A DNA stretch of 64,000 bases from contig CM075995.1 of assembly GCA_038087875.1 (NCBI GenBank), positions 7,132,001 through 7,196,000 on the forward strand. Reading direction: 5' to 3'. The notes beneath the pieces were generated by a model, which saw nothing but the letters and a program-made list of their open reading frames with translations, searched no databases and was not told the origin of the DNA. Numbering within the stretch: position 1 is the stretch's first letter; every line of letters begins with the position of its first letter. Origin of the DNA: Malacoraja senta. Lineage: Eukaryota. The position numbers were made by a program, and so were the translations under genes. Positions 21,561-35,128 of this stretch are shown here, one piece after another.

Positions 21561-22172
21561 TAATTGCAGTTCTCCATAAGACTGGTCATTTTAGTCGAGA
21601 ACCAAAATGGCAGCTTGGCAGGATGAAGTCTGTCTGAAGAAGGGTCTCGACACGGACGTCATCCATTCCTTCTCTCCAGAGATGCTGCCTGGCCCGCTGA
21701 GTTACTCCAGCTTTTTTGTGTCTATCTTCATGTAGAAAGGAAGTACAGATAATAATAATAAAAATAAATAATAATACACTTTATTGTCATTGTAAATACA
21801 TAGAGACATAGAAAATAGGTGGCCATTCGGCCCTTCGATCCAGCACCGCCTTTCATTGTGATCATTGGCTGATCGTCCCCTATCAATAACCCGTGCCTGC
21901 CTTCTCCCCATATCCCTTGACTCCACTAGCCCCTAGAGCTCTATCTAACTCTCTCTTAAATCCATCCAGTGACTTGGCCTCCACTGCCCTCTGTGGCAGG
22001 GAATTCCACAAATTCGCAACTCTCTGGGTGAAAAAGTTTTTTCTCACCTCAGTCTTAAATGGCTTCCCCTTTATTCTAAGACTGTGGCCCCTGGTTCTGG
22101 ACTCGCCCAACATTGGGAACATTTTTCCTGCATCTAGCTTGTCCAGTCCTTTTATAATTTTATATCTTTCTA

Positions 22173-22317
22173 TCTTCTTCTTCTTCTTGCGTGTGGCGTG
22201 CCCAGCCTAAAGTTGTAGGACAACTTGTTCCATTTGATCTTATTTGATTGTGCACGCCGGGTTGATTACATTCGTCGAAACAGGGCGGACCAGGTGAAGG
22301 TTGCAATCTCCCACCCC
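22173..22317 (-). mobile_element. ~145-nt non-tRNA SINE-like retroposon with (GAA)n tail, possibly Ingi/Vingi-related
   Basis: TSD atat(c/g)tttcta (22162-22172 / 22318-22328); second copy at 34760-35128. Confidence 0.85.
22264..22317 (-). ncRNA. Predicted minimal HDV/CPEB3-like ribozyme
   Basis: P1 GGGGUGG/CCGCCCU with G1-U wobble, P2 GAUUGCA/UGUAAUC, P3 ACC/GGU, L3 UUCACCU, then GU-UUCG-A and J4/2 CGAA; G1 is the first base of the element. Confidence 0.75.
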
Positions 22318-22497
22318 ATATGTTTCTATAAGATCCCCCCTCGTGTGTATTCAGTGCAGAGTTCAGTGTGGTGATGGCCTTGGGGTAGAAACTGTTTGTT
22401 CATCTTGTGGTGTGTGATTTGATGGACATGTAACGCTTTCCTGAGGGCAGATGGGCAAACAAATGATGTGAGGGATGAGATGAGTCCTTTAGGATCT

Positions 22498-34759: not shown

Positions 34760-35013
34760 GGGGTGGGAGATTGCAACCTTCACGTGGGGTGGGAGATTGC
34801 AACCTTCACGTGGGGTGGGAGATTGCAACCTTCACGTGGGGTGGGAGATTGCAACCTTCACGTGGGGTGGGAGATTGCAACCTTCACGTGGGGTGGGAGA
34901 TTGCAACCTTCACGTGGGGTGGGAGATTGCAACCTTCACGTGGGGTGGGAGATTGCAACCTTCACGTGGGGTGGGAGATTGCAACCTTCACGTGGGGTGG
35001 GAGATTGCAACCT
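34760..35013 (+). repeat. Perfect 26-bp minisatellite (GGGGTGGGAGATTGCAACCTTCACGT), 9 full units plus a partial tenth
   Basis: Direct reading; no spacers. Confidence 0.97.
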
Positions 35014-35128
35014 CTGTTTCGACGAATGCAATCAACCCGGCGTGCACAATCAAATAAGATCAAATAGAACAAGTTGTCCTACAACTTTAGGCTGTGCACG
35101 CCATACGCAAGAAGAAGAAGAAGAAGAA
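34760..35128 (+). mobile_element. Second copy of the 145-nt ribozyme-headed retroposon, 5' end expanded into a tandem array
   Basis: 3' part ctgtttcgacgaatgcaatc..gccatacgca(aga)n matches 22173-22283; approximate TSD tacacgt/tacaagt. Confidence 0.88.

Follow-up and report, generated by a model that had tools for sequence, protein, structure and literature searches.

The window, by which is meant the whole 64,000-nucleotide stretch of Malacoraja senta DNA analysed here, carries on its minus strand a 145-nt element that raises two questions: whether a short non-coding retroposon of a vertebrate can be headed by a self-cleaving HDV-like ribozyme, and which LINE might move it. The element, named SINE-A, is a real and abundant non-autonomous retroposon with a predicted ribozyme at its head, and the LINEs that most likely mobilise it are of the Vingi type. 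The coordinates of its parts, and those of two related features, are given in Table 1.

Table 1. Positions of the SINE-A copy and its parts, of the second copy in the window and of a related LINE head (window coordinates unless a locus is named)
Feature	Position	Strand	Remarks
Whole element, family SINE-A	22173..22317	minus	145 nt
Predicted minimal HDV-like ribozyme, nt 1-54	22264..22317	minus	predicted cleavage 5' of G1 (22317)
P1 5' strand	22311..22317	minus	partner 22282-22288; G1-U36 wobble
P2 5' strand	22302..22308	minus	partner 22264-22270
P3-L3-P3	22289..22301	minus	position 25 (22293) is C here, G in 26/30 family copies
G37-U38 (opposite C22 and U21 in P1.1) with 5-nt P4 remnant	22275..22281	minus	
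J4/2 CGAA	22271..22274	minus	predicted catalytic cytosine: C44 (22274)
Body	22190..22263	minus	~10-bp outer stem around 7-bp hairpin; 3' end CG directly before tail
C(AAG)n / (GAA)n microsatellite tail	22173..22189	minus	
Target-site duplication, 5' copy, 11 bp	22318..22328	minus	adjoins G1
Target-site duplication, 3' copy	22162..22172	minus	one mismatch; within CR1 3' fragment
Second copy	34760..35128	plus	10 head words repeated in tandem every 26 nt; body and tail intact; P3 3' and P1 3' strands lost
Vingi-like family A LINE ribozyme head	L181:692-775	plus	RF00622; ~30 nt before ORF

Re-reading of the minus strand returned the same letters, coordinates and helices that the initial annotation had given for this element. 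In its head P1 has 7 bp, of which the first is the G1-U36 wobble and the fifth a U-G; J1/2 is 2 nt long, P2 has 7 bp, P3 3 bp and L3 7 nt, after which come G37-U38, a 5-nt linker where P4 would be, and J4/2 CGAA. On both strands of the 64-kb window a compact HDV descriptor has a single match, which is this element, and a looser descriptor scores 0 in 397 of 400 random pieces of the window, with two pieces that equal the score of the element and probably overlap it. The 11-bp target-site duplication (TSD) that had been claimed is present at both flanks, although its two copies differ by one mismatch. The host DNA of the insertion is a CR1 3' fragment and the empty site can be read from two further CR1 copies in the window, each of which carries the TSD word once; the surrounding frames are mostly repeat-derived, and no host gene was identified from them.

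A G-to-C change in L3 had been suspected of impairing this copy, and it does indeed hit G25, which in the HDV and CPEB3 ribozymes forms with U20 the wobble by which the catalytic Mg2+ is positioned (PMC4836649). The wobble is thus lost, and to judge from its letters the copy in the window has probably been slowed or killed by G25C.

What is true of one damaged copy is better judged from its family, which consists of non-coding retroposons of about 140 nt that have no ORF and end in a (GAA)n tail, and which has the dispersed copies, the TSDs and the 3' microsatellite of a non-autonomous non-LTR retroposon. In the 1.94 Gb of genome searched, a 27-nt word from the tail is matched exactly 2,212 times and a word from the head 2,719 times, and the reversed control words are matched 0 times. 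Capture-recapture over the first 88 Mb of C1, where 26 of 81 tail matches are paired with one of 100 head matches, puts the family at about 8,500 copies, which is probably a rough and low estimate. The first 30 tail-word matches, picked blind to their 5' ends, bear out the expectation that the family starts at G1, as 27 of them begin within 2 bases of it (19 at position 1, seven at position 2 and one at position 3); one further copy begins at position 6 and two are truncated. Automated searching gave plausible TSDs of 7-15 bp in 26 of these 30 copies, with three calls spurious and one empty, and the mean divergence of the sample is 4.4%. Four runs from three organisms also have SINE-A, with identical edges, among their contigs and reads, and in runs X13, X14, X1 and X3 there are loose ends at its G1/G2 edge. 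As a separate observation, the base 5' of G1 is T in about 17 of the 30 top-scoring copies (flanks of L001-L030), hinting at a preference of target or junction.

Tight 5' ends are typical of Pol III SINEs as well, and they might be taken, together with the faintly B-box-like nt 37-47, to mean that SINE-A is an ordinary Pol III SINE whose ribozyme-like fold is incidental. This is very improbable, as the best A-box and B-box matches of SINE-A each have 3 mismatches of 11 and are absent from SINE-B, a second short family described below, and the fold is unique in the window and homologous to the heads of LINEs. The earlier reading that there is no tRNA head also held, ARAGORN giving 0 genes in five loci, and no head derived from a small RNA (tRNA, 7SL, 5S or U snRNA) with A and B boxes was found in SINE-A.

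One of the checks that had been proposed for the ribozyme, a search with Infernal against the Rfam HDV and CPEB3 models, missed the element, with no match in the window at E<=5, and the Rfam scan of the window gave only sub-threshold hairpin matches, none of them at the element. Against RF02682 a near-consensus SINE-A copy reaches 14.4 bits (E 2.1), and against RF00622 it gives no match, let alone one at the cut-off of 35 bits. It is instead descent from LINE heads, and covariation across 14 heads, that uphold the HDV/CPEB3-like character of the head. The nested double-pseudoknot order of HDV-like ribozymes is present, with P1 (6-7 bp), P2, P3 (3 bp) and a P1.1 that consists of one C-G pair and a U-U, as it does in CPEB3, and the family has the predicted catalytic C first in J4/2 and U20 and G25 in L3, the window copy being without G25.

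The 14 heads aligned are two of SINE-A, one of SINE-B and 11 from LINE families, the rows being hand-picked as the best-folding copy of each family with the poorly fitting head of L270 left out, and the core is gapless in most rows. Across these 14 heads 89.5% of the paired cells are indeed paired, against 65.2% on shuffling (0 of 500 shuffles as high) and 38-50% on sliding, and at 16 of the 19 pairs, P1.1 among them, the hand-picked heads have compensatory change on both sides. Within the young SINE-A family itself compensatory changes were neither expected nor seen. A relaxed descriptor is passed by 13 of 23 heads tried. It is apparent that U20, G25, C22-G37, the predicted catalytic C and the A of J4/2 are constant across the two short families and most LINE heads, with stem sequences that vary freely, and the G1-U36, U20, C22-G37 and G25 of SINE-A agree with the numbering of CPEB3.

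Returning to the 30 SINE-A copies, all 18 pairs and seven core bases are intact in 10 of them, with C44 kept in 28, U20 in 27 and G25 in 26, and the common subfamily variants, at positions 8 and 59, both lie in unpaired linkers. Outside CpG the head has diverged by 2.0% and the body by 2.9%, a comparison that reveals no clear selection on the head after insertion.

The second short family, SINE-B, was revealed by the RF00622 search; it is about 170 nt long with TSDs and a GAA tail (L221, L223, L227-L230 and L284-L313), and a 25-nt word of it has 886 exact matches. Its head is present in 24 of 30 copies by regular expression and in 27 of 30 by eye, and is without P4 like that of SINE-A, with different stems. 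P1 is 6 bp in 18 of the 21 copies scored, a length known among HDV-like ribozymes (PMC4908430). The body fold of SINE-A, an outer stem with an inner hairpin, is also the layout of the SINE-B body, but homology between the two bodies is weak, with 8 of 1,000 shuffles scoring as high and part of the signal coming from the tail, so only a common layout is claimed. The last bases of SINE-B are those of a Vingi-like LINE family, family B.

A LINE partner of Vingi/Ingi type had been guessed from the tail of the element, and the guess fits the LINEs that are present in the genome in their RT motif, 3' ends, heads and tree. A search with PF14529 for the partner returned Nimb-like, CR1 and L2/Crack-like elements instead, whilst a search with a Vingi/Ingi-type RT motif gave 349 matches in roughly ten families. 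We take these to be related to Vingi from the motif and from a published description, and as the RT tree was drawn without reference Vingi or Ingi proteins they are called Vingi-like; fourteen of their RTs fall on one side of a branch (100/99), apart from Nimb and CR1/L2. In that description Vingi encodes APE and RT in a single ORF, is without RNase H and has short UTRs (PMC13708176), and L247 has just this organisation, its single ORF of 986 aa containing APE and RT with no RNase H match and its UTRs being short. An ESM Atlas search gave only generic RT names. Full-length Vingi-like copies are 3.1-3.3 kb long and start with an HDV-like fold, three of four have TSDs of about 9-11 bp, and of their 3' UTRs, which are about 10-40 nt long, most end in CG and a microsatellite that is usually (GAA)n, as SINE-A does.

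The closest of the 11 LINE heads to that of SINE-A is found in family D, which agrees with it in 22 of the 26 columns of the core and in 34 of all 51 columns, and the two also have in common the P3/L3 core and about 13 nt of tail, in which the last six bases before the microsatellite contain one difference. As in a SIDE, therefore, the 5' end of SINE-A is homologous to the 5' end of a LINE. Family D has a long P4 and different P1 and P2 sequences, and so is a relative of SINE-A and not its parent; in the RT tree it groups with family E (89/87, not starred), and the P3 and tail type are common to both. No LINE sharing both termini of SINE-A was found in the sample covered (about 60 loci from the 100 of 349 RT-motif matches listed, 40 of 150 APE matches and 103 loci screened). 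A pattern made of the tail with foreign sequence upstream gave 55 matches, which by their matched letters are SINE-A copies with indels or truncations, and in 30 loci no Vingi-like coding sequence adjoins such matches; the 13 matches to a pattern of the same head with a long P4 are all variants of the short element.

Many Vingi-like insertions are twin-primed (L205, L208, L212, L218, L219, L222, L224 and L226), in that a head of about 100 nt is inverted relative to the 3' part, and TSDs lie outside the insertion in L208 and L219. At the internal junction of L205, L208 and L222 the inverted head stops precisely at G1, suggesting that G1 is the first base of the LINE RNA itself; in several further twin-primed insertions it stops a few bases short of G1. 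Two smaller observations concern other Vingi-like families. Positions 8-18 of the SINE-A head recur as an identical 11-nt word in the 3' UTR of family B (L113 and L247), which may be chance, and a family E copy with a 403-aa frame (L266 and L267) is found on dozens of small contigs with one and the same flank upstream of it, as if it had been amplified inside a larger repeat.

The genome also contains young Nimb-like LINE families (L061-L103 and L110), with zinc knuckles in ORF1, an ORF2 of which many 1,277-aa frames are intact, and a (GAA)n end. That these and not the Vingi-like LINEs mobilise SINE-A is improbable: their many intact frames would suit such a role, as would the CAAGAAGAAG in which their copies end after a stem-loop, but their 3' ends are without CG before the tail and have no similarity to SINE-A beyond the microsatellite, and the head of SINE-A is of the Vingi-like type.

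With a Vingi-like LINE as the preferred partner, the head of SINE-A would be the 5' ribozyme of such a LINE trimmed to a P4-less minimum. A SINE-A copy, we infer, would reach RNA either as part of a longer Pol II transcript or from an initiation point immediately upstream of it, and the HDV-like ribozyme may then cut 5' of G1, as the fold and covariation suggest, to give an RNA with a precise 5' end. A Vingi-like APE-RT protein might recognise the CG and (GAA)n of the 3' end, with the RNA inserted through target-primed reverse transcription. As the cut would lie upstream of the ribozyme, full-length copies would each keep their own processing signal. The products that such a cycle would leave are plain to see in the genome, being mostly full-length copies from G1/G2 with TSDs of about 12 bp, in which the head and body then decay at similar rates, and the lack of G1 in seven of the 30 copies counts against this explanation.

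Transcripts that contain SINE-A are found in X14, a polyA RNA-seq run of a related organism. Of its 816 SINE-A reads 243 (128 and 115) continue beyond the G1/G2 edge into upstream flanks that vary, and in this one raw run molecule starts do not pile up at G1 or at any other place. The reads may come from copies of either strand and from intact or damaged ones, so those that cross the edge are regarded as read-through and not as an absence of cleavage; two thirds of SINE-A copies are damaged. The same reads running through G1 could be held to favour a head that is mainly an internal promoter, like Pr77 of L1Tc and NARTc, or a protective or protein-binding 5' fold, in either case derived from a Vingi ribozyme and with weak or no cleavage. 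Pr77, the head of L1Tc, is both promoter and ribozyme (PMC3185411, PMC8256844), so the label 'promoter-less' that SINE-A had been given may not hold, and the fold of the R2 ribozyme is described as giving cap-like protection of the 5' end (PMC13708176). The loss of P4 and the J1/2 of only 2 nt point the same way, the latter counting against cleavage in that very short spacers impaired another HDV-like ribozyme (PMC4908430), although J1/2 is also 2 nt in several LINE heads. A role mainly as promoter or fold is nonetheless unlikely, since a DNA promoter needs no paired stems with swapped sequence, and it is the catalytic core that is constant across the short families and most LINE heads whilst the stems change freely; such a role can in any case coexist with cleavage.

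Ribozyme-headed non-autonomous elements are not new. NARTc, RIME and SIDER of the L1Tc/ingi clade, and the R2 SIDEs, are short, non-coding and trans-mobilised elements with a LINE-derived 5' ribozyme at +1, all of which SINE-A appears to resemble, its activity being predicted. The heads of NARTc and SIDER cleave in vitro (PMC3185411, PMC4035085, PMC6765202) and HDV-like ribozymes in some SINEs are mentioned in reviews (PMC6765202, PMC7761336, PMC8256844), so that the kind is already known. SINE-A differs from NARTc, RIME, SIDER and the R2 SIDEs in its vertebrate host, its Vingi type, about half their length and the loss of P4, and also in that its parent LINE with near-identical ends was not found in the partial sample covered. 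Internal deletions of Vingi-1_EE, along with SINE2-1_ACar and SINE2-1_AMi, are like SINE-A short and non-coding with Vingi 5' sequence, but the latter two have a tRNA head upstream and SINE-A does not (PMC5786205).

The loss of P4 has its closest counterpart in the minimal HDV-like or theta ribozymes (drz-Mtgn, gut phages), which are also P4-less with the catalytic C first in J4/2; nearly 99% of them are in Caudoviricetes, where they process tRNA, and the sections of that report consulted give no eukaryotic matches (PMC10879173). The P3-L3-P3 core pattern has 48 matches in viral contigs and the full fold is found in none of the 48, so it is likely from these sequences that the ribozymes of SINE-A and of phages were trimmed independently.

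The accessible text of the literature searched, with Repbase and Dfam outside its scope, contains no description of the SINE-A family, of a Vingi ribozyme or of a Vingi origin of CPEB3, and as far as these searches reach the vertebrate Vingi-type case is new, as is the presence in a eukaryotic mobile element of a predicted ribozyme without P4. The predicted ribozyme of SINE-A would extend the ribozyme-headed non-autonomous retroposons from trypanosomes and the R2 SIDEs of flies to a vertebrate genome, where they reach high copy number, would give a eukaryotic context to P4-less HDV-like ribozymes that have so far been almost confined to phages (PMC10879173) and would add Vingi to the LINE clades with a 5' ribozyme. 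Vingi-1 is itself under development as a gene-writing tool, for which the donor RNAs carry Vingi UTRs (PMC13708176).

A further link is to the mammalian CPEB3 ribozyme (RF00622), which has in common with SINE-A the L3 sequence, a single-pair P1.1 with U-U, G1-U36, J4/2 CGAA and the numbering through 38, but which is single-copy and intronic, with a full P4 and different P1, P2 and P3 sequences. The RF00622 search gave 51 matches, with 39 of the 59 scored candidates (LINE heads and some SINE-B copies) over the cut-off. The head of the Vingi-like family A LINE scores 59.7 bits (E 5e-16) and up to 64.2 bits in other copies, the range being 44-64 bits in L181, L201-L204, L206-L208, L210, L211, L217, L219 and L220, and some copies of this family have open frames of 926-1,014 aa. 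Another Vingi-like head, in the decayed copies L212, L214, L216, L222 and L225 (around 1501-1579), scores 39-51 bits, and by eye 54 of 67 positions in L212 and 52 of 61 in L216 (81-85%) are those of the Rfam CPEB3 consensus, with the P4 stem included. In L212 and L222 it is inversion junctions that connect the head with a Vingi-like RT, rather than a full-length copy in which the two are collinear. As the sequence of P4 differs widely among the remaining LINE heads, the P4 common to L212, L216 and CPEB3 favours descent over convergence, and the head of these five decayed copies is a candidate relative of the source of the CPEB3 ribozyme.

There are traces of Vingi in the human genome (PMC5753468), and the accessible parts of the literature on CPEB3 evolution do not address the source of the ribozyme (PMC8233481, PMC10919898, PMC9901934), with the words 'origin' and 'transpos' absent from the available text of the paper on its ancestral resurrection (PMC8233481). 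On balance it seems somewhat probable that a CPEB3-type ribozyme is the usual start of vertebrate Vingi LINEs, that these give rise to promoter-less mini-retroposons consisting of hardly more than a minimal 54-nt ribozyme and a recognition stem, and that the CPEB3 ribozyme arose by exaptation from the 5' end of an ancient Vingi insertion. If true, one genome would hold thousands of potentially active ribozymes, as about a third of the roughly 8,500 copies look intact, and with a Vingi origin as the hypothesis the source of the mammalian CPEB3 ribozyme becomes directly testable.

Two further features of the window may be recorded. Between about 43500 and 59000 there is an 8-kb tandem duplication, in which features recur at +8,026 (e.g. 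48128 and 56154) and near which there are N gaps; it may be either real or an assembly artefact. The other is the second copy of SINE-A, for which the initial annotation had given L3 UUCACGU and a perfect P2 3' strand. The family L3 and the P2 3' strand are present as it said, but this copy cannot fold as a ribozyme, since none of its ten head words, which are spaced 26 nt apart and followed by a deletion, has an intact P3 3' and P1 3' strand after it; the compact descriptor has no match there. From 34760 to 35012 the 26-nt head unit has been expanded in tandem, probably by slippage between the flank/G1 and L3/P3 junctions, which have about 7 nt in common, and short head duplications that resemble this expansion are found in L211 and L279.
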